A stretch of DNA of 64,000 nucleotides from Chloroflexota bacterium (GTDB lineage Bacteria > Chloroflexota > UBA6077), in contig DAHVXI010000045.1 of assembly GCA_027356795.1 (NCBI GenBank), positions 4,303 to 68,302 on the forward strand. Reading direction: 5' to 3'. The translations under genes were made by a program, and so were the position numbers. The notes beneath the pieces are model-generated. The model worked only from the letters and a program-made list of their open reading frames with translations, did no database searches and had not been told where the DNA came from. Numbering within the stretch: the first letter of the stretch is position 1; each line of letters begins with the position of its first letter. This document shows positions 450-64,000 of this stretch, piece after piece.

Positions 450-509
450 CTACCGTACCTCCCCTCACTGCTTATTGGATGATCGCTCCAGGAAAGGCTG
501 GAGCGGCCC

Positions 510-710: not shown

Positions 711-846
711 AGCCAGCCTCCAATGCAGAACTGCACGATAGGTAGGCTAACAGTGGGGAGTCAAGGGGTCTACGTGCAGGGCGTCAGAAAAGCGGGGGCG
801 GGTGTTTGTGCAAAGTGCACAAAGGAGACGGGGCGACGGGGAGGTT

Positions 847-942
847 CCCTCTCCCTCTGGGAGAGGGTCGGGGTGATGAGGTCTCCCTCTCCCAGAGGGA
901 GAGGCGGGGGACCGAGGGCGGCCTCTCCTAGGGGGAGAGGCG
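847..942. repeat. Three tandem copies of the REP-like palindrome CCCTCTCC(C)-loop-GGGAGAGG (847-867, 884-905, 921-942)
   Basis: Direct reading finds ccctctccctctgggagaggg, tccctctcccagagggagagg and cctctcctagggggagagg. The same element recurs at 22028 and 33651. Confidence 0.7.
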
Positions 943-962
943 AAGACGGCCTCTCTCCTGAG

Positions 963-2696: not shown

Positions 2697-2807
2697 CGCT
2701 GCACCTCTCGCCAGTCTGTTCGCACGGGGATTCTACAGTTTCTTGCCGGATGCCGCTACCTTACGCAGGGAAAGGGTTCGATCCCCCCACCGTGGCCTGG
2801 GGGGTGA

Positions 2808-4472: not shown

Positions 4473-4599
4473 CGGGGCAGCCATGCCAGGATGCCGGCCA
4501 CGACCCCGGCCGGCAATGGACGCCAGTAGATAAGCCAGCATCAATCTGTTAATATGTGCTAGCGTCAGCATAACTCTCCGGCGAAGGCGGATCGCGAAT

Positions 4600-6790: not shown

Positions 6791-6924
6791 GCCCCTCCAC
6801 AGCTACTTACTACCTGATGGGGTGGGATCCGGAGACCGGCGTGCCAACCCGGCTTACCCTGGAGCGGCTGGGGCTGGACTGGGTGGCAGAGGATCTGGCC
6901 CTGCGTGGCAAGCTGCCCGGATAA
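6736..6924 (+). CDS. Short ORF resembling the extreme C-terminus of aldehyde:ferredoxin oxidoreductase (possible gene remnant)
   Basis: YYLMGWDPETGVPTRLTLERLGLDWVAEDL resembles the AOR-family C-terminal tail (YY.RGWD..G.P...TL..LGL). It overlaps the preceding ORF in a different frame. Confidence 0.3.
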   Translation: MCEEDSSLAPQGDVSLVLSPSTATYYLMGWDPETGVPTRLTLERLGLDWVAEDLALRGKLPG

Positions 6925-6927
6925 GGG

Positions 6928-6962
6928 CAGGAGGCGCGCGGCGAGACGCCGCGCGCCTCCTG
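6928..6962. terminator. Perfect 15-bp stem-loop between convergent genes (bidirectional terminator candidate)
   Basis: caggaggcgcgcggcg-agac-gccgcgcgcctcctg read directly. It lies between the + ORF ending at 6924 and ttrA ending at 6997. Confidence 0.6.
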
Positions 6963-6996
6963 TGGAAGACCGATTTGGCCTCAACTGGGTGGTGGC

Positions 6997-11441: not shown

Positions 11442-11445
11442 CCTC

Positions 11446-12381
11446 CTAGACCAGATAGTAGACCCTGGGGTTGGTGCCCAGCTCTTCCTTGAGACGCATA
11501 ACGTTTGGCGAGGCGATCAGCTCGGACACCAGGCTGTCAGGCAGGTTGGCGTCGCCGAAGTAGGTGGCGCCGCCGATGCAGGTGGTGGTGCAGGCGGGCA
11601 GCATGCCCGCATCGAGCCGGTGGAGGCAGAAGGTGCACTTACGGACGTTGCCCACGGGCGAGCCCTTGGCTCGGTCCCACCGCTTGCCGTACTCGAAGTT
11701 GGCCTGCTTCTCGTAGGGCTGCTGTGCGGGCGTGCTCTTGGTGTAGTAGAAACCGGAATCGAAGGTGCGCGCCGAGTAGGGACATGCTGTGATGCAGTAG
11801 CGGCAACCGATGCAGATGTCGTAGTCGATTTCCACCATGCCGTCGGGTCGCTTGTAGGTTGCCCCCACGGGACATACCTGCGTGCAGGGTGGGTTGTCGC
11901 ACTGCATGCAGGGGCGCGGGGTGAAGCGGCGCGAGACGTTGGGGTAGCTGCCGATCTCCTCCTCGATGACGGGTCGGTATACGACTCCGGGCGGGAGCTG
12001 GTTCTCCGCCTTGCAGGCGACGGTGCAGGAGGAGCAGCCGACGCACTTACGCAGGTCGATGACCATGACCCAGCGCCGCTGGTCGACCGGCTTAGCCAGG
12101 GCGCGCTGGAGACCGTTCTGCATGCGCAGCAGCAGGTTCTCAAAGTCAGGGGAGGAGGGCGCGGAGGGGACCGGAGGTGAACTCCCCGCTCCCGGGGCGG
12201 ATTGGGAGGCTGTAGTTGATTGGCGTGAGCCGGCGGCCTCGGCCGCGACCGTTCTGCTGGCCGCGCCGCCGACGGCAGCCGCCGCGGCCAGCCCCAGCCA
12301 CTTTAGGAAGCTGCGCCTTTCGCCGGCCGGCACCTCTTCTTCGGGGGCCGAAGCGGGCGAGGGTTGGTTGTCTGTGGTCAT
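11446..12381 (-). CDS. ttrB: 4Fe-4S ferredoxin-type subunit of DMSO-reductase-family complex (TtrB-like), Tat signal
   Basis: Four Cys clusters: [45 protein letters not shown]. The Tat motif is [16 protein letters not shown]. The likely start is the ATG at 12381, with AGGAGG 9 nt upstream. The ORF extends to 12477. Confidence 0.75.
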
Positions 12382-47725: not shown

Positions 47726-48004
47726 CGTCCTTCTCGGTTGGAGGGGATGGGGGTTAGTGAGCCCGGCGCGGGTAGCCCACGGATTGTAGCACCCACCGTG
47801 CAAGTTGAGTAGGGCGGGGTCTCGTGCCGGCCCCGACCGCACAACCGCCGGCCCTATCGTAGGGACTGGCGGCGAGGTATACTAGTGCCCAGGCAGTTGA
47901 GAAGGTGATCCGGCGAGCCAGACCTCGCTCTTCGAGACATCCTTCTTTCGATCTTGCTCTCCAGCTTCTTTGAGGGCGAAGACGCCCTGGTGGGAGGTTT
48001 GCTT

Positions 48005-49039
48005 GTGAGAATCGGACTTCTAACCGGCGGGGGTGACGCACCCGGACTGAACGCGGCGATCCGAGCTGTGGTGAGGCGCGCCCTCAGCCTCGACTTCGAC
48101 GTCCTTGGCGTCCGGAACGGGTGGGCGGGACTGCTGGGCGGCGGCAACTTTCAAAGACTGGACTGGCGGTCGGTGTCTGGCATACTGCATCAGGGTGGCA
48201 CCATCCTGGGGACCTCCCGCACCAACCCGGTGAAGCGACCGGAGGAGCTGGAGCAGGTTCAGGCCAACGTGAAGGCCTTCGGCATAGACGGCCTGGTGGT
48301 GATCGGCGGGCGGGATAGCCTCTGGGTGGGTGCCGAGCTGCACGATCGGTGGGGAAAGGTCGTTGGGGTGCCCAAGACCCTGGACAACACCCTGGTGGGC
48401 ACCGACCAGTGCATAGGCCACAGCTCGGCCGTCGCCCTGGTGGCGGAGGCGCTGGATCGGCTGCACACCACGGCCAGCGCCCATCACCGGGTGATGGTGG
48501 TGGAGGTTATGGGCGGCGACGCCGGTTGGGTGGCCATCGACGGCGGTCTGGCCGGGGGCGCGGATCTCATCGTGGTCCCGGAGGTCCCCACCGACCTGGA
48601 GTCCATCTGCAATCACGTCCTCGCCCGGCGCGCCCAGGGCAGGGAGTTCAGCATCATCGTGGTGGCGGAATCGGCCAGTATCAGCGATTTCTCCGACGAG
48701 GCGATCGACCTGGGCAAACCCGACCCCTTCGGCCGGTACAAGCTGGATCGCCGGAACATGGGCGAGCGGCTGGCGGCGGAGATCGAGCACCGGACCGGCC
48801 TGGAGACCCGCTTCATCGTCCTGGGCTATTTGCAGAGGGGTGGCTCGCCGACGGCGGAGGACCGGCTGCTGGCGACCCGGCTGGGGGTGGCCGCGGTAGA
48901 CTACGTGGCCGAGGGCCGCTTCGGCTACGTGCCCTGCCTCAACTGTGGCTCTGTGGTGCCGGTGCCCATACGGGAGGTGGTGTCCCAGACTCGGCCCGCC
49001 GACATGGAGCTGTACGAGCTGGCGAGACTGTTCTTCTAG
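48005..49039 (+). CDS. pfk: 6-phosphofructokinase family protein with atypical active-site motifs
   Basis: RIGLLTGGGDAPGLNAAIR. The canonical GGDGS is IGGRDS here, and MGR is MGG. The GTG start at 48005 follows GGGAGG. Confidence 0.8.
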   Translation: MRIGLLTGGGDAPGLNAAIRAVVRRALSLDFDVLGVRNGWAGLLGGGNFQRLDWRSVSGILHQGGTILGTSRTNPVKRPEELEQVQANVKAFGIDGLVVIGGRDSLWVGAELHDRWGKVVGVPKTLDNTLVGTDQCIGHSSAVALVAEALDRLHTTASAHHRVMVVEVMGGDAGWVAIDGGLAGGADLIVVPEVPTDLESICNHVLARRAQGREFSIIVVAESASISDFSDEAIDLGKPDPFGRYKLDRRNMGERLAAEIEHRTGLETRFIVLGYLQRGGSPTAEDRLLATRLGVAAVDYVAEGRFGYVPCLNCGSVVPVPIREVVSQTRPADMELYELARLFF

Positions 49040-49054
49040 CGGCCCATGCCGCAG

Positions 49055-49077
49055 GAATCGTGGAGGGACGGGTCTAA
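49055..49077. terminator. Hairpin after pfk (ggacgggtc-taag-gacccgtcc)
   Basis: A perfect 9-bp stem read directly. Confidence 0.55.
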
Positions 49078-49115
49078 GGACCCGTCCCCACCTGTGTCTG
49101 CCGCTCTCGTTCCGC

Positions 49116-49424
49116 TCAACATCTCCTGGCCACGAAGGCCTCGAGACCGCCGTCGCGGATCTCTCGGAGGTTCTCCATCCGCCGGGACCGGAAGATCGTC
49201 GCGAAGAGCCTGCTGACGAAGTTGTTCAACTTCTCGCAGGATTCCATCTCCTGGCACTCGGCGCAGGTGGTGAAGCCCCGCTCCAGGGTGCAGAGGCGCA
49301 CCCGGCACCCGGCGAAGCCGCCCCCTGCCCTGCAGCCCTCGCATCTCCCCTCCCTTGAGGCCCCACAGGCAGCGCAGTAGAGTCCACAGTAGGCCACGTC
49401 CAGCGTCGGGCCGCTGCTTCCCAT
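49116..49424 (-). CDS. DUF3795-type Cys-rich zinc-binding protein
   Basis: YCGLYCAACG...CEGC...C..C..C..C. 102 aa. Confidence 0.6.
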   Translation of the reverse strand: MGSSGPTLDVAYCGLYCAACGASREGRCEGCRAGGGFAGCRVRLCTLERGFTTCAECQEMESCEKLNNFVSRLFATIFRSRRMENLREIRDGGLEAFVARRC

Positions 49425-49608
49425 CGCCGTCTCCCCTCCTCCTGGCCAGGGTCAGGATCTACGTGCGGCCGGGGCACACCCGGCCGTGCCGGGACTATCC
49501 GCCACAACTCGGCGGTCGCAGCCTCGCCATTCATGAGAACCATACTGGGGAGCACGACACCAGTGTAGCGATAGTTGGGTCGCTTGCCAATCCTCGATCG
49601 GTGGCCGG

Positions 49609-49646
49609 AATCGAAAGGGGGCGGCTGAGGCCGTCCCCTTTCGATT
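49609..49646. terminator. Perfect 12-bp stem-loop (aatcgaaagggg / cccctttcgatt) with nested inner hairpin, between two zinc-ribbon genes
   Basis: Read directly. Confidence 0.55.
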
Positions 49647-49664
49647 GTCGTGTCTTGTGAGAGG

Positions 49665-50024
49665 CTACCAGCGGCCTCGGCCGCCCCCGCTGCTCGGTCG
49701 CCGGTCGTACCCGCCCCCCCTACTGGGACGCTGGGAGGAATAGCAGTCGGAGCAGTAGACAGGCTTGTCGAGGCGGGGCTGGAAGGGGACCTGGGTCTCC
49801 TTCCCGCACTGGGCGCACACCGCGGGGTACATCTCGCGATCCCGATGGCCGCCGAAGGAGCCGCCATCGCCGCGGGTGGCCTTGCGGGTCGCGCGGCACT
49901 CGGGACAGCGGCCGGGGTCGTTGGTGAAACCCTTCTGAGCGAAGAATTGCTGCTCGCTTACAGTGAAGAGGAACTCGCGGCCACAATCGCGGCAGGTGAG
50001 GGTCTTGTCTTGCATGGCGGTCAC
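49665..50024 (-). CDS. Zinc-ribbon protein (CxxC..CxxC x2) with Gly/Arg-rich tail
   Basis: CRDCG..CPEC and CAQCG..CSDC. The likely start is GTG 50024 (AGGAG 5 nt upstream) or ATG 50015. The ORF opens at 50039. Confidence 0.6.
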   Translation of the reverse strand: MTAMQDKTLTCRDCGREFLFTVSEQQFFAQKGFTNDPGRCPECRATRKATRGDGGSFGGHRDREMYPAVCAQCGKETQVPFQPRLDKPVYCSDCYSSQRPSRGGGYDRRPSSGGGRGRW

Positions 50025-50265
50025 GCTGACTCCTAACACTGAATTACTTGGAACGATCCGTCAGCGCATTGACGATCAGGGGCGTGGGCCCGAATAACCC
50101 ATCACCAGCCCGGCCGCTTTGACGATCTGCGGAAACGACCAGCTCTATGACTATACTCTAGTTAGCTAGAGCATGCAATAGCGAAACTGAAGTTGGTGTG
50201 GTGCTGTTCGTGGGAGACAGTCGGCGGGCTGCACGGCTCGCTACCCTCGGCCCCTCTCTCGTGCC

Positions 50266-50580
50266 TCATCGGTTCTGCCAGGCGGGCATCTTGGCCATGC
50301 AATCCCTGGCGGCCAACTCCGCCTGCTGCGGCGCCATCCCCTGCGTCTTCTGGAAGAAGGCGCTCATCCCAATCAGTGCCTCCTCGTAGGATCGCATCGA
50401 GCCGCCCTCGCGACTGCAGTGGACGCAGTAGTCTTTGCTGGTGTCTCCCTTCCAGAAGTCCTCAGTGCCCCTCAGGGGCATCCCACACGAGATGCAGAAA
50501 CGCTCCTTCCCAGTGTCAGCCATTTTCCCATTCTCCTTCCTGTACGACTTGGTGTCAGGGTTGCCCAGTTGGACGAGCAA
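50266..50580 (-). CDS. Zinc-ribbon domain protein
   Basis: CISCG...CVHC. The start is possibly the internal Met (MADTGKERF). Confidence 0.5.
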   Translation of the reverse strand: MLVQLGNPDTKSYRKENGKMADTGKERFCISCGMPLRGTEDFWKGDTSKDYCVHCSREGGSMRSYEEALIGMSAFFQKTQGMAPQQAELAARDCMAKMPAWQNR

Positions 50581-50594
50581 TAGTATTAATGAAG

Positions 50595-52418
50595 TCAGCT
50601 CGCCAAAGAGGGCGTGGCGGCTTTCTCCTCCACGTCCCGGAACTGGCGCCGGTAGAGGTCGGCGTACAGCCCGCCCTGTTCCAGCAGCTGATCGTGGGTT
50701 CCCCGCTCCACGATGCGACCCTCGTCGATCACCAGCACCTGGTCCGCGTTCCGAATGGTGCTGAGCCGGTGGGCGATCACGAAGCTGGTCCGCCCCTGGA
50801 GCAGCTGCTCCAGCGCCTGCTGGATCAGCATCTCGGTCCGGGTATCCACGCTGCTGGTGGCCTCGTCCAGGATCAGGATCCGCGGGTTGGCCAGGATCGC
50901 CCGGGCGAAGGCGACCAACTGGCGCTGACCCTGGCTGAGGGAGTTGCCCCGCTCGCCCAGCACCGTGTCGTAGCCCTGGGGCAGCCGCAGGATGAAGTCG
51001 TGGGCGTTGGCGAGGCGCGCGGCCTGCTCCACCTCCTCGTCGGTGGCCTCCAACTGGCCGTAGCGGATGTTGTCGGCCACGGTGCCGGAGAAGAGGAAGC
51101 TGTTCTGGGGGACGATCCCCAGCTGGCTCCGCAGGGAGTCCAGGCTCGCATCCCGCACATTCATCCCGTCGATGGTCACCCGGCCCCCCGTCACGTCGTA
51201 GAAGCGGGCGATCAGGTTGGCGACGGTGGTCTTGCCGGCCCCTGTGGGGCCCACCAGAGCCACCGTCTGGCCCGGCTCGGCCGCCAGGTCGACCCGGTGC
51301 AGCACGGGGTGCAGGGGATCGTAGGCGAAGTCCACCTTCTCGAAGACCACCCTCCCCTGGATGTGGGGAATCGTCTTGGCCCCGGCGGCGTCCACCATGT
51401 CCTCCTCGGTGTCCAGCAGGTCGAAGATCCGCTCGGCGCCCGCCATGGCCGACTGGGCCTGGGTGTAGATCTGGCTGATCTGCTGGATCGGCCAGAAGAA
51501 CTGCTGCACGTAGCCGAGGAAGGCCACCACCAGGCCGATGGTTACCATCCCCTCCATCGCCAGGTAGCCGCCGAAGGTCACCACGATGATGGTCGCGACG
51601 GTGCTGAGGAGGTCCATCGTGGGGGAGAAGGCCGAGGTTATCGCCGTGGCACCCACGTTGGCATCCCGGTTGGCGGCGTTGCGCTGGGCGAAGCGGGCCT
51701 GGTTCAGTCCCGTCCGGTTGAAGGCCTGGGCCACCTTGATGCCGGCGATGTCCTCCTGGAGGTCCGCCGAGACGTCTCCGATGGTCTCTCGGGTCTTTCG
51801 GAAGGCCCTGCGGGCCATCTTGGCGAAGAGGTTGGTGGTTATCAGCATCACCGGTATGACCGAGGAGGCCGCCAGGGCGAGAGGCCAGTAGAGGCCGAAC
51901 ATAGCCAGCAGGATGCCCGTGAGCGACAACGCCCCTGAGATGGCTTGAACCAACCCCATGCTGAGCAGGTTGTTGATGGTGTCCACGTCGTTGACCAGCC
52001 TCGACATCAGGTCGCCGGCGTCGTGCTTGTCGAAGTACTGGAGGGAGAGCCGCTGCAGCTTATGGAAGATCTTGCCCCGCAGCAGGGCCAGGGTGTTCTG
52101 GCCCACCCAGCCCATCAGGTAGCCCTGCAGCATCCGGGCGCCCAGGCCGGCCAGGTAGACGCCCAGCAACAGCAGCATATTGATCGCCAGCCCGGTCCTG
52201 TCGCCGACGGCGATGAAGCTGTCGACGGCCCTGCCCACCAGGTAGGGGCCTCCGGCCGCCGAGGCGGCACCTATCAGGGTGAGGAGCAGCACTACGACCA
52301 GCCGCAGCCGGTAGGGGGCCAGGTAGCCCAGCAGCCTCCCCACGACCGCTTTGCCGTTGGCAGCCTTCTCCTCGCGTATGCTCGCTTGATGTTGGAAGTG
52401 GCCTCCGAACATCTTCAC
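50595..52418 (-). CDS. ABC exporter, fused permease/ATPase (half of heterodimer)
   Basis: A 6-TM domain plus a nucleotide-binding domain with Walker A GPTGAGKTT, signature LSQGQRQ and Walker B ILILDEATS. Confidence 0.9.
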   Translation of the reverse strand: MKMFGGHFQHQASIREEKAANGKAVVGRLLGYLAPYRLRLVVVLLLTLIGAASAAGGPYLVGRAVDSFIAVGDRTGLAINMLLLLGVYLAGLGARMLQGYLMGWVGQNTLALLRGKIFHKLQRLSLQYFDKHDAGDLMSRLVNDVDTINNLLSMGLVQAISGALSLTGILLAMFGLYWPLALAASSVIPVMLITTNLFAKMARRAFRKTRETIGDVSADLQEDIAGIKVAQAFNRTGLNQARFAQRNAANRDANVGATAITSAFSPTMDLLSTVATIIVVTFGGYLAMEGMVTIGLVVAFLGYVQQFFWPIQQISQIYTQAQSAMAGAERIFDLLDTEEDMVDAAGAKTIPHIQGRVVFEKVDFAYDPLHPVLHRVDLAAEPGQTVALVGPTGAGKTTVANLIARFYDVTGGRVTIDGMNVRDASLDSLRSQLGIVPQNSFLFSGTVADNIRYGQLEATDEEVEQAARLANAHDFILRLPQGYDTVLGERGNSLSQGQRQLVAFARAILANPRILILDEATSSVDTRTEMLIQQALEQLLQGRTSFVIAHRLSTIRNADQVLVIDEGRIVERGTHDQLLEQGGLYADLYRRQFRDVEEKAATPSLAS

Positions 52419-52426
52419 CTCATTCT

Positions 52427-52481
52427 AGCTATCAGCGGTCAGCTGTCAACTGCGAAGGTTGCTGACTGCTGATGGCTATCG
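52427..52481. repeat. REP family-B-derived long inverted repeat between the two ABC genes
   Basis: agctatcagcggtcagc ...17 nt... gctgactgctgatggct (15/17 complementary). Confidence 0.55.
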
Positions 52482-54202
52482 TCTCTCAGCTGCGACGACA
52501 CGATCTCCCCATACAGGTGGTTGGTGGCCAGCAGCTCCTCGTGGGTGCCCTGGGCCACCACGTGAGCCCCGTCCAGCAGCAGGATCTTGCCGGCGTTGCG
52601 GACGGTGCTGATCCGCTGGGCCACGATGAAACTGGTGCGGCCCACCATCAGGTCGTCCATGGCCTGCTGGATCTGGTACTCGGTCTCGGCGTCCACCGAG
52701 GAGGTGCTGTCGTCCAGAATCAGCACCTTCGGGTTCAGCAGCAGCGCCCGCGCGATGGCGATCCTCTGCATCTGGCCGCCGCTCAGCCCCACGCCGCCCT
52801 CCCCAATGCGGGTGTCGTAGCCCTGGGGCTGCTCCAGGATGAACTCGTGGGCCTGGGAGATCTTCGCCACGGCCTCCACCTCCTCCTGGGTCGCCTCCGG
52901 CGCCCCGTAGGCGATGTTCTCCCGAATGGTGCCGCTGAACAGCACCGTCTCCTGGAGCACGATCCCGATCTGGGATCTCAGGCTCTCCAGTGTCACCTCC
53001 CGCACGTCGTGGCCGTCGATGGTGGCCCTTCCGCTCCGGACGTCGTAGAAGCGGGGGATGAGATTGATGATGGTGCTCTTGCCGGCCCCCGTGGTGCCCA
53101 CCACGGCCACCGTCTGTCCCGGTTCCGCCGCGAAGCTGACGTGGCTCAGGGCATCGTGCTCGGCCCCGGCGTAGCGGAAGCTGACGTCCTCGAAGGCCAC
53201 CCTGCCCTGGATGGCGGGCAGCGGACCGGCGTCCGGCCTATCCTGCACCTCGCTCTCGGCGTCCAGCACCTCGAAGACCCGTTGGGCGGAGGCACCGGCG
53301 CGGGTCATGGTGGCCATGATCATCCCCAGCATGAAGATGGGGAACATCAGGAAGCCCAGGTAGGCGTTGAAGGCGACCAGCTGTCCCAGGGAGAGGGAGC
53401 CGCCGATCACCTCGTTCCCGCCGTACCAGACCACCAGGAAGGTGCCCACGTTCCCAAAGAAGAAGATCACCGGGAAGGTGGTGTTCAAGGCCCTGGTGAC
53501 CCGTATGTTCTCGGCCAGCAGGTCGGCGTTGGCCCGGCCGAACCTCTTCGTCTCGTGCTGCTCCCGGGCGAAGGCCTTCACCACCCGCACGCCGGCCAGG
53601 TTCTCCTGGAGGATGGTGTTCAGCGCCCCCAGCTTCTGCTGGACCTGGCGGAAGAGGGGCTGGACGTTCCGGACGAAGCGGGCGAACACCAGGAGGATCC
53701 CGGGGATGATGGTCAGCGACACCAGGGCCAACCGCCAGTTCATGACGAACAGCACCAGGGAGCTTCCCGCCAGCATCACCAGGGCGCCCATCAGCTGGAG
53801 GAAGCCCTGGCCGATGAACTGGCGCACCATCTCCACGTCGCTGGTGACCCGGGTCATGAGCTGTCCGGTCTGGGCCTGGTCGTGGTAGCTGAAGCTGAGG
53901 CCCTGCAGCTTGGCGTAGATCTCGTTCCGCAGATCGTAGGCAACCCCCTGAGAGGCCTTCTCCGATAGGTAGCCCTGGAGGAAGGTGAAGACGCCCCGAA
54001 CGGCCGCCACCCCCAGCAGACCGCCAGCGGCCCACAGGATGGCACTCCACTGATGCCCGACGACACCGCCGTCGATGGCCAGCCGCAGAAACTGGGGGGA
54101 GGCCAGGTTGGTGGCCGAGACCAGCACGAGGCTGAGGAAGGCGGCGGAGGCCGTCGTCCAGTAGGGGAACAGGTACTTGAGCGCGCGGCGTAGCGATTTC
54201 AT
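52439..54202 (-). CDS. ABC exporter, fused permease/ATPase (second half of heterodimer)
   Basis: Walker A GTTGAGKST, signature LSGGQMQ and Walker B LILDDSTS. Confidence 0.9.
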   Translation of the reverse strand: MKSLRRALKYLFPYWTTASAAFLSLVLVSATNLASPQFLRLAIDGGVVGHQWSAILWAAGGLLGVAAVRGVFTFLQGYLSEKASQGVAYDLRNEIYAKLQGLSFSYHDQAQTGQLMTRVTSDVEMVRQFIGQGFLQLMGALVMLAGSSLVLFVMNWRLALVSLTIIPGILLVFARFVRNVQPLFRQVQQKLGALNTILQENLAGVRVVKAFAREQHETKRFGRANADLLAENIRVTRALNTTFPVIFFFGNVGTFLVVWYGGNEVIGGSLSLGQLVAFNAYLGFLMFPIFMLGMIMATMTRAGASAQRVFEVLDAESEVQDRPDAGPLPAIQGRVAFEDVSFRYAGAEHDALSHVSFAAEPGQTVAVVGTTGAGKSTIINLIPRFYDVRSGRATIDGHDVREVTLESLRSQIGIVLQETVLFSGTIRENIAYGAPEATQEEVEAVAKISQAHEFILEQPQGYDTRIGEGGVGLSGGQMQRIAIARALLLNPKVLILDDSTSSVDAETEYQIQQAMDDLMVGRTSFIVAQRISTVRNAGKILLLDGAHVVAQGTHEELLATNHLYGEIVSSQLRDDSHQQSATFAVDS

Positions 54203-54211
54203 GATCGGCTA

Positions 54212-54757
54212 TCAGTCCTCAGCTTTCAGCTTCTCGGTGCGTGACATAAAGTGCCGACGTCGACCCTCGCCGTTCCCGCCGGGCGCCCCCTCGGGCTGCG
54301 CGGCCGCATGCTGATGGCTAGCGGCTGATAGCTGATGGCCGACACCCCTCCACAGGCTGTCCAGCAGCCTCTCCAGCTGCGGCCTTTCCTCGGGATCCAG
54401 CTCCTGGGTGAGGGCGTCGGAGATCGCATGGATCTCCTCTGACAATTCCCGCGCCAGACTATGGCCGGCATCGGTCAGAAAGAACAGATGGGCGCGGCCG
54501 TCGGTGGGATGGGGCCTTCGCTCCAGCAGGCCGAGGCGCTCCAGGGACTGGAGGGTTCGCGTTACGTTGGCCGGCTCGACACCGGCAGGAACGGACAGAT
54601 CCAGGGCCTGAAGCCCCGGGTGGCGGCTCAGCGCGGTCATGATGATGGTCTGGGTGCGATTCAGCCCCCGGCTGGCGAGGCGGTGCTCCAGCAGATACCC
54701 GACGTGCTTCCCCAGGAACACCAGCTTCAGGGCCAGGGGCGGCCTCTCTCCGTGCAA
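54212..54757 (-). CDS. MarR-family transcriptional regulator
   Basis: LTRTQTIIMTALSRHPGLQALDLSVPAGVEPANVTRTLQSLERLGLLERRPHPTDGRAHLFFLT is a MarR wHTH. Confidence 0.8.
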   Translation of the reverse strand: MHGERPPLALKLVFLGKHVGYLLEHRLASRGLNRTQTIIMTALSRHPGLQALDLSVPAGVEPANVTRTLQSLERLGLLERRPHPTDGRAHLFFLTDAGHSLARELSEEIHAISDALTQELDPEERPQLERLLDSLWRGVGHQLSAASHQHAAAQPEGAPGGNGEGRRRHFMSRTEKLKAED

Positions 54758-54936
54758 AGCGAAACCCCTCAGCGAGTTAGTTGCGTGCGCAAGTAAGTAT
54801 ATGCCGAAGGGGGGGCGGAGGGCAAGGGGAATGAGAACAGGCAGCCAGGTTGACCATCATGCTAGATGAGGCGAGAATATGTACAGGCGTCCTCCGGCCT
54901 CGGCTTGACGATGGATGACTCAACGAGGAATCAGCA

Positions 54937-55413
54937 GTGGCGACTACGCTTTCGCAACAGATCATAGAGACTCTTGACCAGGCGGAGCAGCTCTACAATC
55001 GCCTGGTTCTGGTGGTAGGACCTCCTGGCACCGGGAAGACGGCCGCCCTGAGGCAAGTATCCAAGAGTAAGGGGCTCCCCTTGGTGAACGTCAATCTGGA
55101 GCTGAGCCAGAGACTGCTGGAGTTGACGGAGAAGCAGCGGGCTCTGCGATGCGGACAGATCGTGCGAGAGATCGTCGACCAGGCGGGTGGTTCCGCCGTC
55201 TTGCTGGACAATCTGGAGGTGGTCTTCGATCCCGCGCTGCGGCAAGATCCTCTTCGGCTGCTCCAAGGACTCTCCCGCAATCGGACAATCGTTGCCAGCT
55301 GGAACGGACAGGTCGCGGATGGCTACCTTGTTTACGCCGAGCCCGGCCACCTTGAGTACGGGCGATATCCGATCTCGGGCCTCTTGATGGTGGCAGCGTC
55401 AACGGTCGAGTGA
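54937..55413 (+). CDS. brxF: Small P-loop ATPase, BrxF-like (BREX type 3 first gene)
   Basis: Walker [13 protein letters not shown] and Walker B AVLLDNLE. 158 aa with a GTG start. It sits immediately upstream of the BrxC-like giant ATPase. Confidence 0.5.
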
Positions 55414-55447
55414 GGACGGGACTCTAGGCATTTGGAGGAAGGGCGCG

Positions 55448-58400
55448 ATGAAGTACCGCGAGCTGATCCAGTTCCATCCCATCACGGCCAATATCGAGCT
55501 TCGTGACGCCGATCAGGAGGATCGCGCCCGGCAACTGGTGTCGACCTACGTCGTCTCGCAAGAGATGGCCGACCGGCTGATTCACGTTGCCTTCAACCAG
55601 CTCCAGTACGACACGCCCGCCGACAACAAGGGGCTTCTGGTGGTCGGCAACTACGGCACAGGCAAGTCTCACCTGATGTCGGTAGTCTCGGCTGTGGCCG
55701 AGCGCGCCGACCTGGCAGCCGATCTCCAGAATAAGAGAGTCGCTGACGCCGCGGCGAAGATCGCCGGGAAGTTCAAGGTGATTCGGACGGAGATCGGGGC
55801 CACCACGATGCCACTCCGCGAGATAGTGGTGGGTGAGCTGGAGGATCGGCTGGCGGACATGGGAGTCCACTACAGCTTTCCTGCCATCGATCAGGTCCAC
55901 ACAAACAAGCCTGCCTTCGAGGCCATGATGGCCGCCTTCCACCAGGTGTATCCGGACCATGGTCTTCTGATGGTGGTGGATGAGCTGCTGGACTACCTGC
56001 GCGAGCGGAAGGACCAGGAGTTGATCCTCGATCTGACTCTACTGCGAGAGATCGGAGAGGTGTGCGGGGACATCCGGTTCCGCTTCGTGGCCGGCGTGCA
56101 GGAGGCGATCTTCGACAGCCCGCAGTTTGCCTTCGCCGCCGACACCCTGAGAAGGGTGAGAGACCGGTTCGAGCAGATCCACATCGCCCGGCGGGACGTG
56201 AAGTACGTGGTGGCGGAGAGGCTGCTGAAGAAGACGACGGATCAGCAGGTGAAGATCCGCGAGCACCTCGCACCCTTCGCCCGCTTCTACGGCGACATGA
56301 ACGCCAAGATGGACGAGTTCGTTCGTCTCTTCCCGGTGCATCCCGACTACATAGACGTGTTCGAGCGCATCACCCTGGCCGAGAAGCGGGAGGTGCTTCG
56401 CACCATCTCTCGATCGATGGACCGGCTGCTGGACGAGGATGTTCCCCAGGATAGCTCCGGTCTCGTCGGCTTCGATAGCTACTGGGAAGTGATCAAGGAC
56501 AACCCTGTGGTGCGGGCGATACCGGACGTACGGCTCGTGACGGACTGCAGCGCCAAGCTGGAGGACCTGGTGAACGTCGGCTATCCGAAGGGCAAGAGCA
56601 AAGAGATGGCCCGAAGGATCATTCGTGGTCTGAGCGTCTACCGGCTGGCGGTAGGGAGCGTCGATTCGCCGGTTGGGCTGAGCGCCGAGCAACTCCGAGA
56701 CGTGTTGTGCCTGTACGATCCTCTCGTCGGAGAGCTGGGGGGCGATGCCGCCGAGGACCTGCGCGGAGAGATCGAGACAGCTCTACGGCTGATCAGCACC
56801 ACGGTGAGCGGCCAGTTCATTTCCGCGACGGAGCGGGATGAGAAGGGACGGCTGGGCGGCCAGTTCTACCTGGACGTCTACAAGACCCAGGACTACGATG
56901 CGGACATAGACAAAGAAGCAGAGGTTCTCGGGAAGAACACCCTGGACAGGTACTACTACCAGGCTCTTCGTCGCGCCATGGAGTGTTCCGATCAGACCTA
57001 CGTGTCTGGCTTCAACATATGGGAGCACGAGTTGGAGTGGCGCGAGAAGAAGGCGATGAGGCAGGGGTACCTGTTCTTCGGAGCGCCCAACGAGAGGTCG
57101 ACGGTTGCACCGCCCAGGGACTTCTACGTGTACTTCCTCCAGCCCCACGATCCGCCGGTGTACAGGGACGAGAAGAAGGCAGACGAGCTGTTCTTCAGAC
57201 TGGCCGGCGCCGACGATCTGTTCAGAGCGACGCTGAAGAGGTACGGAGCGGCGCTGGAGTTGGCGAACAGGGAGTCCGCGGGCCTGGCGAAGTCCGCGTA
57301 CACGTCGAAGGCCGACGCCCACCTGCAGTCGCTGGTCAAGTGGCTCCAGAAGCAGATGGCCACTGCTTACCAGGCAACCCACCAGGGGCGGGTCCGCCCT
57401 CTGATGGAGTGGCTGAAGGACGCGGCGGTGTCCGGGCAGGCGCACTCCCAGGCAGCCGGCGGCAACGTGCGAGACACGGTGAACGCGGTTGCGTCCGAGT
57501 GCCTGGCCCCGCACTTCCAGGAGCAGGCGTCGGAGTATCCCACCTTCTCGATCCTGGTCACCGTGAAGAGTCGGGGACAGGCGGCACAGGATGCTCTGCG
57601 CTACGTGGCGGGGGGAGCACGGACCAAGACGGCCGCGGCTGTGTTGGACGCTTTGGAGCTGCTGGACGGAGAGAGAGTAACTGCCAACGCTTCCAGGTAT
57701 GCCGGTTACGTTCGGGGGCTGCTTCAGAAGAAGGGGCAGGGGCAGGTGCTGAACCGGGGAGAGCTGATCCAGAACGTCTCCGGCGTAGAGTTCATGGCGC
57801 CGGAGAGCTACAGGCTCGAGCCCGAGTGGGTGGTAGTGGTGCTGGCAACACTGGTGCATGCCGGAGAGCTGGTGCTGGCGATACCCGGGAAGAAGTTCGA
57901 GGCCGGCGATCTGGGGATGCTGGCGGCGACGCCGCTCCAGGATCTCGTCGGTTTCAAGCACGTCGAGGCGCCGAAGGAGCCGAACCTCCCCGCGCTGAAG
58001 GCACTGTTCGAGCTGCTGGGGCTCGGCCCGGGCAGGGCAATCCAGGTGACCCAAGGGGACGAGAATGCGGTTCAAGATCTTCGACAACAGGCGGCAGAGA
58101 GAGTAGGAAGGCTGGTTATGGCTCGCCAGCATCTCCAGGGTGGGCTGCCGTTCTGGGGAAGGACGCTGCTAAGCGAGCAGGAGCAGGCAGACTATGGGAG
58201 CCGTCTGGAGGGGACAAAGGCGTTTCTGGAGTCGCTCCAGGCTTACTCGACGCCCGGGAAGCTGAAGAACTTCAACCAGACAGTCGAGCAGGTGAACAGC
58301 CACAAGGCCGGGCTGCAAACGTTGCGGGAGGTGGAGGAACTGCACGGGCTGGTAAACGACCTGGCGTCCGCGGCCTCCTATCTGTCTTCCGCCGAGCTGA

Positions 58401-59191
58401 CGCTGCCCACCGAGCACTCATGGGTTGCGAAGGTCAGGCCGGCCAGGGAAGAGGTTGTGGCCCGCGTTTTGGACCCCGGCAAGAGGGCTGCGGATGGATT
58501 CCGGCAGGCAGTGCTCCTGGACCTCGCCGGCCTGAAGAAGGAGTACGTGGACATCTACATGCCGGCGCACTCCAGGGCGCGGCTGGGAGCGAAGGAAGAC
58601 CAGAAGAGGGCGGCCCTGCTCCATGACGACCGTCTGGAGCAGCTGAGGAAGCTGGCGACGATAGACCTGATGCCGGTGCAGCATCTGACCGACTACCAGA
58701 ACCGGCTGGCAGAATTGCCGTCCTGCTTCGCGCTGACACCGAGAGAACTCGAAAGCTCTCCTGTATGCCACTGCGGGTTCAAGCCGAATCTGGAGCCGGC
58801 AGCCGCGTCGGCAGCTGCTCAGCTGGCTGCCCTGGACGGCGAGTTGGACACGCTCCATGCGAACTGGACGCAGACCCTGGTGGCGAACCTGGAAGACCCG
58901 ACGGTGCAGGGGAATCTAGCGCTGCTGAAGCCGGACCAGAAGAAGCTGATAGATGCGTTTCTGGCCAGTCGCAAGCTGCCGGACGCATTGGATCAGCAGT
59001 TCCTACAGGCGGTTCGCGAGGCGCTGTCGGGGCTGGTCAAGGTGGCGGTAAAGGTGGAGACGCTTAGGGATGCGTTGATCGCGGGCGGATCGCCAGCGAC
59101 GCTGGCGGAGATGAGGCAGCGATACGAGGGGTTCCTGGCAGAACTGGTCAAGGGAAAGGACACAGCCAAGGTCCGGCTGGTAGTGGAGTAA
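55448..59191 (+). CDS. brxC: BrxC/PglY-like large ATPase (1247 aa)
   Basis: N-terminal Walker [13 protein letters not shown] and Walker [12 protein letters not shown]. The size and the neighbouring small ATPase and PF01555-type MTase fit BREX type 3. The assignment comes from motifs and architecture, not from a search. Confidence 0.6.
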
Positions 59192-59220
59192 CGGTGCCCG
59201 GCTGGCTCGGGAGCTGCAAT

Positions 59221-59250
59221 AGCTTTCAGTTATGAGCTATAATCTGAAAG
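59221..59250. repeat. Hairpin of REP family B type (tagctttcag ... ctgaaag) after brxC stop
   Basis: tagctttcagttatgagctataatctgaaag read directly. Confidence 0.5.
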
Positions 59251-59293
59251 GCAACTCCCGGGAGATGTCCCGGCTATCGGGGAGAGGACGACA

Positions 59294-59701
59294 ATGAAGG
59301 CGGGCGTGAGTGCTTCCCTCTTGGACGAACTGGAGGAGCTGAAGCGCGAGATGGAGTCCCAGGGCCGCGCGTCAAAGGCCAGAGCCCTCCGGGAGGCTCT
59401 CGTGGCGCTGGCCAGGCCTGCTCGGGGCTGGATCACCACCGGGCAGGCAGCAGAGCAGCTCGGCATAACGATACCAACCGTCAAGGCCTGGATCCTTCGC
59501 GGTGCTCTGGTCGGCCGGCAGGTAGGGGATCGCTGGTGGGTGTCGCGGGAGAGCGTGGACGAGGTGCTGAGCTTCGGCAGCGGCGTCGTCCAGTTGGAGC
59601 AGGAGGGCTCTTCGACCGAGGAAGAGGCCAGCGAGATGACCAGGGAGGCCCGCCGCCAGATGGGGGCGGAGAAGAGGGCAGCCGGTGGGCGCCAGCGGTA
59701 G
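59294..59701 (+). CDS. Excisionase/MerR-type HTH DNA-binding protein (putative antitoxin)
   Basis: WITTGQAAEQLGITIPTVKAWILRGALVGRQVGDRWWVSRESV matches the excisionase-family HTH. GGAGAGGA precedes the ATG. Confidence 0.6.
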   Translation: MKAGVSASLLDELEELKREMESQGRASKARALREALVALARPARGWITTGQAAEQLGITIPTVKAWILRGALVGRQVGDRWWVSRESVDEVLSFGSGVVQLEQEGSSTEEEASEMTREARRQMGAEKRAAGGRQR

Positions 59702-59741
59702 CGAGAAAGGGAACATTCTACCTGCTTCATTGCTGTCCCTG

Positions 59742-60308
59742 ATGGTCCTGGACCGGGTGACGTTGGACACCGGCATTCTGGTGGGCCCCAGGAGTCCGGA
59801 GTTCGCCATTGCCGCCCGCCTCGGGTACTATCGGGGGCATTGGAGCAACTGGATCGTAGCGGAGTTCAGCCGGGTCAGGACCGAGATGATCCTTCGGCGA
59901 GCCAGGCGGGAGCTGGGAATCACGCGGGAGAACGAGGAGGATGGGGCGATCCAGGAGGAGCTGGAGCAACGGCTGCTCAGGTCCAGGGCCAGGGTGAACG
60001 CCGCCATCGACGACTTCAGCAGGGTGCTGGTCAGCGTGGATTACCAGGAGGCGGAAGAGGCCGACCTCGCCTGGCTGAAGGACGAGGACGACCACCCGAT
60101 CATGCAAACGGCGATAGCCGCCGGGGTACCCGGCGTCCTGGTGACGGACAACTGGCGGGACTTCCCAATAGGCGAGGCTCGCAACGGGATCCTGATCGTG
60201 TCGGGCAGGATGTTCCTGGACTACCTGTATCAGACCTATCCCGAAGCCGAGGCGGTGATCACGAGGTACGCCGAGCGCCGCCGCCAGGCCATCAGCGAGG
60301 GAAAGTAG
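59742..60308 (+). CDS. PIN-domain protein (putative toxin)
   Basis: MVLDRVTLDTGILVG carries the first acidic residue; ..DDHPIMQTAIAAGVPGVLVTDNWRDF is the PIN core. It lies 40 nt after the HTH gene. An alternative start at 59685 overlaps by 17 nt. Confidence 0.55.
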   Translation: MVLDRVTLDTGILVGPRSPEFAIAARLGYYRGHWSNWIVAEFSRVRTEMILRRARRELGITRENEEDGAIQEELEQRLLRSRARVNAAIDDFSRVLVSVDYQEAEEADLAWLKDEDDHPIMQTAIAAGVPGVLVTDNWRDFPIGEARNGILIVSGRMFLDYLYQTYPEAEAVITRYAERRRQAISEGK

Positions 60309-60451
60309 CCAAGACACGGGTGCTGAGTATCCTCGCACATCTCCGGATGGCAGCGCGAACGGAAATGCGGGGTCGCATAGCTGTGCTCTATTGCCCCCGC
60401 TCGATGCTCGTTTCAATGCCTATCGTAGATCCAGCCGTGCGAGGGGGAGAC

Positions 60452-63346
60452 ATGGCCAAGAGACGTGAGTCGCAACAGGTGGGCCCGAGGCTGTTCCGCA
60501 CGAGCGATCAGTTGAATTTCGCGGACGAGCCTTCGCTAGAAGAGCAGGTCGGGGAAGATGCCGGTGGAAACGATGGCTCGGGGCAAGGGGCGCCACGCAG
60601 GGTGCGATCCGTCGAGTGCCTCGGGATGACCTTCGAGAGCGAGGAGGCAAGGCGAGACTACTTCACCGAGAGGCTGCGGGAGAAGCTGAAGGATCCCGAG
60701 TTTCGGAAGATTGAGGGCTTCCCCGTCAGTTCGGACGATGACATCCTGGCCCTGTCCGATCCACCCTACTACACTGCGTGCCCCAACCCATTCATCGCGG
60801 ATTTCCTATGCCACTACGGCAAACCCTACGAGCCGAGCGAATCGTACAACCGGGAACCGTTTGCGGCGGATGTCAGTGAAGGAAAGCAGGACCCGATATG
60901 CATGGCCCATACTTACCACACGAAGGTGCCATACCGTGCTATCATGCGGTATATCCTTCACTACACTAGCCCCGGTGATGTGGTCCTCGACTCATTCGCT
61001 GGCACAGGCATGACAGGATTGGCGGCACAGCTCTGCGCCAACCCCCAGCCGGATTTCCGAGATGCAGTCGAGGCCGAATGGACCAGCGCGGGTCAAACGC
61101 TGCCGAAATGGGGGCGGCGCGTTGCAGTCTTGTATGACCTGTCCCCATTCGCCACCTTTCTCGCTCGCAACTTCAACTCTGACTTAGACGCCAACACATT
61201 CGCCAAAGAAGCGACAGCTCTACTAGGTGATTCAGAGCGTGCACTTGGCTGGATGTACGAGACTGATCTACATGGATCGAAGACGAAGGGGCAGCTGCAG
61301 TATGTCATTTGGACGGAGTCGCTCTACTGCGAATGCGGTCATGAACTGCTGTTCTGGCATCCCAAGGACCCGAGTGGCCAGCTACCCGAGCCTGAGCACT
61401 CATTCCGGTGCCCCAATTGTGACGCGGAAGTTAGCAAACGCAGTGCTAGCCGAGCCACCTCGACTGTAGCCGACTCTCTTCTCGGAACCACGATTCGACA
61501 GAACAGGCGTCTGCCTGTTCTTGTCGAGGCCAAGTTCGGCGACGCGCTTGTGAAGAAGTCACCAACGCGATTCGACCTCGAACTTATGCAGAGAATTGAA
61601 CAGCAGGGACACACCCATTACGTCCCAACGCAACCCATGATGTTCGACGGGACGGCGTGGGGAGATATGTTCCGAGCAGGCTATCACTTCGGGATCACTC
61701 ACGTTCACCACTTCTGGACGAAGCGAAACCTTCTCGTCCTTTCGGATCTCATGGAGCGAGCAAGGAAGTCCAGCGTACCACTTGAAATGCTCTTTCTCTG
61801 CACCTCGTTCGCAGTTAAGACAGGCAGCCGGATGCACAACGTCGGTTTCAGTAGTGGGAAGCTGAACCTAGCCGGCCAAATCTACAACACCCTCCAGTTG
61901 ACCAGCATCAGCGCTGAGCGCAACCTGTATGTGCTTGGGAGGGGCAAAGTCGAGGACATCAGGAGCGTCTTCGACGTAAGAAAACTTCGAGGCTCGACGG
62001 CAATCTCGACCAGCTCGGCAACACAGCTCGCAGGCGTCCCAGACAACATGGTTGACTATGTATTCGTTGATCCGCCCTTCGGTGACAACATCATGTACTC
62101 CGAACTTAGTTTCCTCTACGAGGCTTGGTTGCGGGTATTCACGAACCAGAGAACCGAAGCAATCATGTCGGCCACACAGGAAAAGTCCCTGCATGAGTAT
62201 CAGATTCTCATGCTTCGAGCCTTCAGGGAACTCAATCGCGTCCTAAAGCCGGGTCGTTGGATTACGGTCGCTTTCCACAACAGCAAGAATGCCGTTTGGA
62301 ATGCGATACAAGAGGCTTTGTGGCATGCAGGCTTCGTGGTCGCTGACGTTCGCACACTTGACAAGGGGCAAGGGACGTACAAGCAGATGACCACGGCTGG
62401 GGCCGTCAAGCAAGACTTAGTCATTTCCGCCTACAAACCCAGTGGCGGCCTTGAGGGGCGCTTCAGGCTCACGGCCGGTACCGAAGAAGGCGTGTGGGAC
62501 TTCGTCCGCAATCACCTGGGGCAACTTCCGGTCTTCGTTCCCGTCGACGGCCATGCCGAGGTGGTGGCGGAGAGAGCCGGCTACCTGCTGTTCGACCGGA
62601 TGGTCGCGTTCCACGTCCAAAGAGGTGTGCTGGTGCCGATGTCGGCCGCGGAGTTCTACGCCGGGCTGAAGGAGAGGTTTCCCGCGCGGGACGGCATGTA
62701 CTTCCTGCCCGATCAGGTGGTCGAATACGACCGGAAGCGGCAGGGTGTCAAGGAAGTCTTTCAGCTGCAACTCGTCCCCACCGACGAGGCGACGGCTATC
62801 CAGTGGCTCCGCCAGCAGCTGGAGAGGAAGCCCCAGACGTTCCAGGAGATACATCCAGAGTTCATCCGAGCCATTGCCGGCTGGGAGCGGCACGAGCAGC
62901 CGTTGGAGCTGCGCGAGATGCTGGCCCACAACTTCCTCCGCTACGAAGGCTCCGGTGCGATCCCCGAGCCGATTTGGGCATGGATGCAGAAGAGCGCGAC
63001 CTTGCGCGAGCTGATGAAGGGACAGGACAGGGAGAGCCCGAGCGCTGCTTTGAGGGAAGAGGCGAAGGACAGGTGGTACATGCCCGATCCGAGCAGGGCA
63101 CAGGACCTGGAGAGGCTGAGGGAGAAGGCTCTTCTGAAGGAGTTCGAGGAGTACAGGGCCTTCAAGGGCAGGCAGATGAAGGTGCTCAGGCTGGAGGCGG
63201 TGCGAACCGGCTTCAAGAAGGCGTGGCAGGAGAGGGACTACCAGACGATCATCGACGTGGCCGGCAAAATACCCGAAGAGGTGTTGCAGGAGGACCCTAA
63301 GCTCCTGATGTGGTACGACCAGGCACTGACCAGGAGCGGCGCGTAG
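60452..63346 (+). CDS. pglXI: N6-adenine/N4-cytosine DNA methyltransferase, PglXI-like (PF01555-type motifs), ~964 aa
   Basis: Motif I VLDSFAGTGMTGLAA (~aa 170), motif IV DYVFVDPPFG (~aa 545), and an additional N-terminal LSDPPYY (~aa 100). The start at ATG 60452 follows GAGGGGGAG. The ORF-track start at 59840 overlaps the PIN gene. Confidence 0.75.
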   Translation: MAKRRESQQVGPRLFRTSDQLNFADEPSLEEQVGEDAGGNDGSGQGAPRRVRSVECLGMTFESEEARRDYFTERLREKLKDPEFRKIEGFPVSSDDDILALSDPPYYTACPNPFIADFLCHYGKPYEPSESYNREPFAADVSEGKQDPICMAHTYHTKVPYRAIMRYILHYTSPGDVVLDSFAGTGMTGLAAQLCANPQPDFRDAVEAEWTSAGQTLPKWGRRVAVLYDLSPFATFLARNFNSDLDANTFAKEATALLGDSERALGWMYETDLHGSKTKGQLQYVIWTESLYCECGHELLFWHPKDPSGQLPEPEHSFRCPNCDAEVSKRSASRATSTVADSLLGTTIRQNRRLPVLVEAKFGDALVKKSPTRFDLELMQRIEQQGHTHYVPTQPMMFDGTAWGDMFRAGYHFGITHVHHFWTKRNLLVLSDLMERARKSSVPLEMLFLCTSFAVKTGSRMHNVGFSSGKLNLAGQIYNTLQLTSISAERNLYVLGRGKVEDIRSVFDVRKLRGSTAISTSSATQLAGVPDNMVDYVFVDPPFGDNIMYSELSFLYEAWLRVFTNQRTEAIMSATQEKSLHEYQILMLRAFRELNRVLKPGRWITVAFHNSKNAVWNAIQEALWHAGFVVADVRTLDKGQGTYKQMTTAGAVKQDLVISAYKPSGGLEGRFRLTAGTEEGVWDFVRNHLGQLPVFVPVDGHAEVVAERAGYLLFDRMVAFHVQRGVLVPMSAAEFYAGLKERFPARDGMYFLPDQVVEYDRKRQGVKEVFQLQLVPTDEATAIQWLRQQLERKPQTFQEIHPEFIRAIAGWERHEQPLELREMLAHNFLRYEGSGAIPEPIWAWMQKSATLRELMKGQDRESPSAALREEAKDRWYMPDPSRAQDLERLREKALLKEFEEYRAFKGRQMKVLRLEAVRTGFKKAWQERDYQTIIDVAGKIPEEVLQEDPKLLMWYDQALTRSGA

Positions 63347-63356
63347 GGGTAGGGGA

Positions 63357-63980
63357 GTGACCGAGTCCGTGCATCAAGATATGAACCATGTGTTCACCAT
63401 CGGACACTCGAACCACCCCCTCGATACGTTCATTGGCCTTCTGAAGCAGCACGGCATCGAAGTGTTGGTCGACGTGAGATCCCAGCCGCACTCGCGGTAT
63501 AGCCCGCAGTTTGATGCGCCGGAGCTGAAGATCTCGCTGCCTGAAGCCGGGATCAGCTACCTGTTCCTGGGCCGGGAGCTGGGTGGAAGGCCCGAGGGCG
63601 AGCAGTTCTACGACGATGATGGCTACGTGCTGTACTCTCGCATTGCCGAGACGCCACTGTTCCACGAGGGGATCGCGCGGCTCGAGCGAGGCGTGGAGCA
63701 GTACCGGGTGGCGGTCATGTGCAGCGAGGAGAACCCGACAGGGTGCCACCGGCGGCTGCTCATCGGCCGTGTACTTGGCGGGAAGAGCGTGGAAGTCATC
63801 CACATTCGTGGCGACGGGAGGCTACAGCCCGAAGATGAGCTGAAAGCGGAGGAGCGAGCGAGCTCGGCGGAGGCAACCCAGCTTCGACTATTTGGCTCTG
63901 CGCCGTCGGAGGAGAAGCCATGGAGATCTACACGATCGGTTTCACCCAGAGAACCGCAGCGTCCTTCTTCGGAGCCCTAA
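63357..63980 (+). CDS. DUF488-family protein
   Basis: VFTIGHSNHPLDTFIGLLKQHGIEVLVDVRSQPHSRYSPQF..EAGISYLFLGRELGG is the DUF488 signature. It has a low-complexity C-terminal tail. Confidence 0.65.
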   Translation: MTESVHQDMNHVFTIGHSNHPLDTFIGLLKQHGIEVLVDVRSQPHSRYSPQFDAPELKISLPEAGISYLFLGRELGGRPEGEQFYDDDGYVLYSRIAETPLFHEGIARLERGVEQYRVAVMCSEENPTGCHRRLLIGRVLGGKSVEVIHIRGDGRLQPEDELKAEERASSAEATQLRLFGSAPSEEKPWRSTRSVSPREPQRPSSEP

Positions 63981-64000
63981 GGGCGAAGGGGATTCAACGG
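63921..64000 (+). CDS. Second DUF488-family gene, 5' end only (truncated by window edge)
   Basis: MEIYTIGFTQRTAASFFGALRAKGIQR with AGGAG 5 nt upstream. It overlaps the previous gene's tail by 60 nt in another frame. Confidence 0.5.

Follow-up and report, generated by a model that had tools for sequence, protein, structure and literature searches.

An HTH/PIN pair and a DUF488/DuOB cassette as likely cargo of a probably complete BREX type 3 operon from a Chloroflexota genome

The question raised by this locus is whether a run of genes that breaks off at the end of a 64,000-nucleotide stretch of Chloroflexota DNA (contig DAHVXI010000045.1 of assembly GCA_027356795.1; the whole stretch is called the window below) belongs to a true bacteriophage exclusion (BREX) type 3 system, and what the additional genes lodged within it represent. 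Among the major BREX types, type 3 has been studied least; its classification reportedly goes back to Goldfarb et al. in 2015. An initial annotation of the window had proposed a BREX type 3-like defence island with non-canonical insertions, being either a BREX-3 variant with extra modules or a related, uncharacterised PglXI-based system. Based on all comparisons, we concluded that the region is very probably the 5' two-thirds of a complete and apparently intact BREX type 3 operon of a Chloroflexota genome, in which the insertions are cargo. The function of the locus was deduced from homology throughout, and the roles given below are predicted ones.

Seven consecutive plus-strand open reading frames (ORFs) spanned window positions 54937-64000, and every ORF of the initial annotation was recovered on that strand in its place. 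The operon was followed across the window edge on two further contigs, L001 and L002, and contained the following genes:

54937-55413, plus strand: brxF, a small P-loop protein of 158 aa (PADLOC BrxF, 2.3e-62, aa 1-155 on profile 1-155/158)
55448-59191, plus strand: brxC/pglY, a large ATPase of 1247 aa (PADLOC BrxC PDLC02482, E = 0, 1757 bits)
59294-59701, plus strand: helix-turn-helix (HTH) protein of the excisionase/MerR type, 135 aa, a putative antitoxin or regulator (Pfam HTH_17, 2.1e-07)
59685-60308, plus strand: PIN-like protein, a putative toxin RNase (207 aa with the GTG start at 59685, 188 aa with the ATG start at 59742)
60452-63346, plus strand: pglXI (BrxXI), 964 aa (PADLOC PglXI, E = 0, 1264 bits, profile 16-917/919)
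63357-63980, plus strand: DUF488a, 207 aa, equivalent to PDC-M45B (Pfam DUF488, 9e-25; PADLOC PDC-M45B, 2.8e-58)
63920-64000, plus strand, cut by the window end: DUF488b, 145 aa, of the DUF488-N3a 'active' subclade, equivalent to PDC-M45C (starts MEIYTIGF; PADLOC PDC-M45C, 3.7e-67)
64368-65075 (extrapolated), plus strand: DuOB, a dual OB protein of 235 aa (PADLOC PDC-M45A, 8.2e-42, on L001/L002)
65062-67878 (extrapolated), plus strand: brxHII, 938 aa (PADLOC PDLC02500, E = 0, on L001/L002)
67880-69904 (extrapolated), plus strand: pglZ, 674 aa (PADLOC PglZ, 1.4e-293; Pfam PglZ, 1.9e-26)
69901-70641 (extrapolated), plus strand: brxA, 246 aa (PADLOC BrxA, 5.2e-87)

The gene order was brxF-brxC-(HTH-PIN)-pglXI-(DUF488-DUF488-DuOB)-brxHII-pglZ-brxA. 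All genes of the 15.7-kb operon were located on a single strand, tightly packed or overlapping, and the spacing of neighbours (-61 to +143 nt) fits one operon. Terminator-like sites within the operon were fewer than the count in shuffled sequence.

The three core genes within the window matched type-3-specific PADLOC and NCBIfam models at full length, which favoured the first of the two proposals, a BREX-3 variant with extra modules. The BrxF protein scored 190 bits against NCBIfam BREX_3_BrxF (cut-off 50) and carried the Walker A motif GPPGTGKT at aa 28-35. The BrxC/PglY homology, initially proposed for the 1247-aa protein from its dimensions, was confirmed: aa 1-1247 aligned end to end to the PDLC02482 profile (1-1231/1231), and Pfam DUF6079, now labelled BrxC-PglY_N, was matched with 1604 bits. 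Walker A (GNYGTGKS) and Walker B (LMVVDE) motifs were found at aa 67-74 and 174-179, respectively. An SMC/condensin-like ATPase was excluded, since no such match was obtained for this protein. The pglXI gene started with ATG, with GGGGGAG upstream, and the earlier assignment of its product to the PF01555 type held (Pfam PF01555, 4.6e-15). PglXI is predicted to methylate DNA at the N6 position of adenine and to contain a nested target-recognition insert. Its motifs FAGTG (182-186) and DPPF (540-543) and four cysteines (293, 295, 320 and 323) were invariant across 18 homologues of 54-82% identity. This agrees with PMC12839542 (Nucleic Acids Research, 2026), where BREX type 3, including its composition, was re-analysed and where the target-recognition insert of the type-3 methyltransferase was described as nested and as bearing a four-Cys motif. 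It was also observed that PglXI contained two invariant DPP[YF] motifs. The expected one is DPPF 540-543, and the second was located in the N-terminal block SDPPYYTACPNP (aa 102-113), ahead of the FAGTG S-adenosylmethionine-binding motif.

The locus had been expected to continue past the window edge, with pglZ, brxHII and brxA within ~15 kb downstream. L001 and L002 were found by an exact-sequence look-up of PglXI, and both ran past that edge. In the overlap with the window, 9745 of 9750 bases of L001 (position 1 of which corresponds to window 54251) and 4444 of 4445 bases of L002 were identical. All three genes were found within 7.3 kb on these contigs (at least 99.95% identical to the window), which completes the set of six defining BREX-3 genes, none of them truncated and all in the canonical order. 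The BrxHII protein contained SNF2-rel_dom and Helicase_C domains with GLGKT and DEAH motifs, as a Swi2/Snf2 helicase would, and a TUDOR domain at its N terminus. Nucleotide-binding and catalytic motifs were intact in BrxF, BrxC, PglXI and BrxHII, and family-match E-values of 0 to 1e-62 left chance of no concern. A decaying BREX remnant was considered unlikely, since every core protein spanned its profile end to end.

At this point, a 'BREX-related' (BR) system of the DUF499 type and other PglXI-based systems had to be weighed, since BR systems share BrxC, BrxXI and BrxHII homologues with BREX-3 (PMC12839542). The ATPase of this locus is a full-length DUF6079/BrxC and not DUF499, and PglZ, BrxA and BrxF were all found. 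Hence, the DUF499-type system was excluded by its ATPase and by the presence of PglZ, the uncharacterised PglXI-based system of the initial annotation was abandoned, and anything other than true BREX is hardly credible.

Further, the insertions were examined against a comparison set of 80 BREX-3 loci (L003-L082) from species-representative genomes, annotated with the window proteins as queries. The core gene order was conserved across them. Between brxC and pglXI, 56 of 72 loci had over 400 bp of extra DNA; downstream of pglXI, before the following core gene, 51 of 61 did. With both intervals filled in ~80% of the loci, BREX-3 has two cargo slots, and the term 'non-canonical' initially used for the insertions does not apply. 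Effectors embedded within core BREX loci have also been published as auxiliary or backup elements, with PIN endoRNases as a rarer class (PMC12839542). The inserted ORFs of the 80 loci were clustered and then annotated, and the extra DNA encoded defence-type genes. An NsnB-like AAA_15/21 ATPase with its partner, Ppl, PDC-S02 (DUF1016/YhcG), PDC-S19 (DUF3644), PDC-M24B, an Mrr-nSTAND1 protein and 23S_rRNA_IVP were recorded among the inserts. The commonest insert was a Schlafen/AlbA_2-HATPase_c_4-Fic-like_C protein of ~500-650 aa, which occupied the brxC-pglXI slot of 34 loci and came near to being a seventh, quasi-core gene. The HTH/PIN pair, a DUF488 gene or DuOB was found in none of the 80 loci, and neither DUF488 nor DuOB was mentioned in the text or supplements of PMC12839542.

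Close relatives were found to exchange cargo and to keep the core. The locus L169, with a PglXI 82% identical to that of the window, carried yet other cargo. In L178 (positions 1-11666) the BrxC, HTH and BrxHII proteins were 87-92% identical to those of the window, but PglXI reached no more than 62%. These values suggest a swap of the methyltransferase (specificity) gene among BREX-3 operons that otherwise hardly differ.

The initial annotation was correct in reporting an HTH/PIN pair and two DUF488 genes as insertions, but the third gene of the second insertion, DuOB, lay beyond the window and had not been seen. In the first insertion, the HTH protein also matched the NCBIfam excisionase-family domain (2.4e-07), and the PIN-like gene overlapped the HTH stop codon by 17 nt. 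Conserved acidic residues occupied the usual PIN positions (D9, E41, D114 and D117 in the 188-aa numbering); in the family alignment D9 was conserved in at least 90% of members, E41 and D117 were invariant, and the fourth position was D or N. Eighteen of the 19 aligned members matched Pfam PIN_3 (best 8e-12), and the PIN assignment appears to hold at the family level. The family is rare, with 68 representatives among 1.84 billion proteins in an exhaustive search, and a sequence search of the PDB with the PIN-like protein returned chance-level matches only. The HTH copy of L178 was 92% identical and located in the same position, and the PIN gene of that locus had lost residues 57-134 by an internal deletion. 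The HTH/PIN pair is thus dispensable for BREX. We proposed that the pair is most likely a toxin-antitoxin-like addiction module or an abortive-infection/backup module.

In the second insertion, all three PADLOC PDC-M45 models (A, B and C) were matched by adjacent genes, in the order B-C-A that was also recorded in at least 61 other loci. The DUF488a protein contained the motif CSEENPTGCHRR at aa 122-133. The remaining part of DUF488b was found at L002:4365-4802, and its invariant motif was C116-S-E-x5-C124-H-R-R. It was noted that the DUF488-N3a family, to which DUF488b belongs, gave more than 8000 matches, all of 145 aa and ~70% identical, an extraordinary conservation for an uncharacterised protein. 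By structural modelling, the DUF488 fold would resemble that of cysteine phosphatases. A structural model of DuOB (predicted local distance difference test score, pLDDT, of 96) showed two OB folds resembling those of RPA, MCM10, Stn1 and SSB, and the protein probably binds single-stranded nucleic acid. Its conserved motifs were CLANSRKxGGRCVAG and QPENW, and one DuOB homologue carried the Joint Genome Institute (JGI) label 'putative nucleic acid modification protein with dual OB domain'. Sequence searches of the PDB with DUF488b and DuOB returned chance-level matches only. Judged only from the predicted folds, the likeliest role of the cassette is that of a complex which binds single strands and processes or modifies the ends of nucleic acids.

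The distribution of the cassette was surveyed in 86 loci found via DuOB. The DUF488a-DUF488b-DuOB order was rigid in more than 60 metagenome loci, wherever the sequence was long enough, and BREX-like genes were located nearby in only 1 of the 86. The contexts included SecDF/TGT/MutS2 and trp operon housekeeping neighbourhoods as well as a DarTG/TIR island. The stand-alone cassette had no conserved neighbour except MutS2 in 3 of 48 loci. These MutS2 genes (MutS_V + Smr) were located at L085:8708-11101, at L087:2040-4475 and in one more locus, and solo DUF488b genes were flanked by UvrC (L173) and Tex (L172). The MutS2, UvrC and Tex neighbours may hint at nucleic-acid repair or may be due to chance. 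In two IMG/VR sequences (L184:3731-8670 and L190:2215-7028) the cassette was arranged with DuOB first and was located in prophage accessory regions, adjoining either Peptidase_M78/DUF2924/serine recombinase genes or terminase gpA with an mSLOG-DUF4326 gene. With such prophage-borne copies, the cassette is also a cargo of mobile elements. No literature mention of PDC-M45 was found, and the presence of this DUF488/DuOB cassette within BREX, adjoining brxHII, is the one unreported feature of the locus.

Several observations weighed against a complete operon with mere cargo. The brxHII, pglZ and brxA genes were taken from the near-identical contigs L001 and L002 and not from the window itself. The PIN-like protein alone fell below curated cut-offs (NCBIfam RSP_2648-family PIN, 1.1e-08; Pfam PIN_3, 0.004), and a PIN-family profile search of the PDB returned chance-level matches only and no PIN structure. 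Additionally, the cassette was located directly upstream of brxHII in three diverged loci, namely in the window lineage, L170 and L171, and this adjacency argues against a mere passenger. L170 and L171 were the sources of the two closest DuOB relatives. The former contained an AAA gene with an S8 peptidase, the cassette and BrxHII (DuOB 82% and BrxHII 90% identical to those of the window), and the latter contained PglXI, NA37 with RelA_SpoT, the cassette and BrxHII (DuOB 54%, BrxHII 57%).

A rival reading makes the cassette a functional partner that this Chloroflexota BREX-3 lineage has recruited. It would cooperate with BrxHII, for instance by sensing or chemically processing the single-stranded DNA ends that the helicase exposes, or by adding a second nucleic-acid mark. 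The adjacency persists over a divergence down to 54-82% identity in DuOB and 57-90% in BrxHII, other cargo enters upstream of the cassette and never between it and brxHII, the end of DuOB, with its stop codon, and the start of brxHII share 14 nt in both the window lineage and L171, and the JGI label would suit such a role. However, the cassette was absent from all 80 other BREX-3 loci, more than 80 other cassette loci had no BREX genes nearby, and L178 carried a different gene pair in the cassette slot despite BrxC and BrxHII being 87-89% identical to those of the window. The three loci belong to one lineage and may derive from a single inherited insertion. A partnership with BrxHII is hence rather unlikely. 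If true, BREX would gain a step in which nucleic-acid ends are processed or modified, and the locus would provide a functional handle on DUF488-N3a, which is among the most conserved uncharacterised small protein families. It would also be relevant to how BREX restricts phage, a step that is still unknown.

The surroundings of the operon were also examined. A divergent MarR/ABC-exporter block next to the locus, as initially described, was found at 50595-54757 on the minus strand:

54212-54757, minus strand: MarR regulator, divergent from brxF
52439-54202, minus strand: ABC exporter gene 1 of the divergent block
50595-52418, minus strand: ABC exporter gene 2 of the divergent block
54850-54878, plus strand: promoter-like site TTGACC-17-GAGAAT in the 179-bp MarR-brxF divergent intergenic region (consensus match only)
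54825-54796, minus strand: partner promoter-like site in the same intergenic region (consensus match)

Promoter-like hexamer pairs were not in excess (3 sites against 2.6 expected from shuffling), and the evidence from these sites is weak. On the other side, brxA was followed on the continuing contigs by TerC and then by a P-type ATPase. With a MarR/ABC exporter on one flank and TerC and a P-type ATPase on the other, the initial term 'defence island' was overstated. No tRNA gene was found anywhere in the window, no flanking repeats were seen at either insertion, and the GC contents of the single genes (0.58-0.68, with 0.65 for the window as a whole) gave no clear foreign signal. Proteins at least 90% identical to those of the locus came from Chloroflexota metagenome-assembled genomes.

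The orthologous locus of a close relative without BREX, L172 (positions 1-7870, compared with window 47974-54828 and 63913-64000), was syntenic with window 47974-54828, and its ABC exporter and MarR proteins were 90% and 65% identical, respectively. Beyond MarR, this relative had no BREX genes but only a DUF488b in intact form (81% identical), then a DuOB remnant and the Tex gene. The remnant consisted of ~75 nt of the DuOB 5' end, which had lost its start codon and carried a 5-nt deletion. Such an arrangement could also be read the other way, with the DUF488 gene or genes having a resident housekeeping function at this chromosomal site and a dispensable BREX added around them later. The same MarR/ABC block directly ahead of an intact DUF488b, the conservation of the DUF488b homologues and the many cassettes located among housekeeping genes would fit this. 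The decayed DuOB 5' end, in contrast, shows that genes were lost in L172 and not that the window genome gained them. It would not be parsimonious for the two BREX halves to have inserted independently to the left and right of a resident gene, and the same cassette-brxHII junction recurs in L170 and L171, each with different cargo ahead of the cassette. We regarded a resident DUF488 function as improbable. Most parsimoniously, L172 would have lost BREX and most of the cassette and kept DUF488b, in line with BREX being accessory and with DUF488b being strongly conserved.

By homology, PglXI would most likely methylate adenines of a specific motif in host DNA as the self mark, while BrxC (an ATPase), PglZ (phosphatase-like), BrxHII (a Swi2/Snf2 helicase), BrxA (DNA binding) and BrxF would then block the replication of incoming, unmethylated phage DNA. 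The HTH/PIN pair would act as an addiction or abortive-infection backup. In the cassette, DuOB would hold single-stranded nucleic acid, and the cassette as a whole would process or modify nucleic-acid ends.

An intact example of BREX-3 adds little alone, and the current picture of BREX is unchanged by it. What the locus contributes is the recognition of two slots, filled in most BREX-3 loci, whose contents are exchanged among close operons, and a specific, testable association of BrxHII with an uncharacterised and extremely conserved DUF488/dual-OB cassette. The retention of DUF488b in the BREX-less relative hints at a value independent of defence.

Finally, the locus was compared with known systems. 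It resembles BREX type 3 in its six defining genes, in their canonical order on one strand, in the nested four-Cys insert of PglXI and in a Swi2/Snf2 BrxHII of ~940 aa. Only the cargo differs, as neither the HTH/PIN pair nor DUF488-DUF488-DuOB occurred in the other BREX-3 loci compared. Like the embedded BREX effectors of PMC12839542, the extra genes are located inside the operon, between core genes, whereas the DUF488/DuOB cassette has no recognisable nuclease and combines a cysteine-phosphatase-like fold with OB folds. The HTH/PIN pair is similar to VapBC-like type II toxin-antitoxin systems in that a small HTH gene overlaps a downstream PIN-like gene, the family of which conserves acidic residues at the usual positions; it differs from them by its divergent and rare PIN family with a ~40-residue insert and by a putative antitoxin of the excisionase/MerR type. 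The three cassette genes match the three models of PDC-M45 (PADLOC-DB v2.0.0), which is a candidate system only, and most copies of which stand alone, when the copy described here is nested inside BREX.

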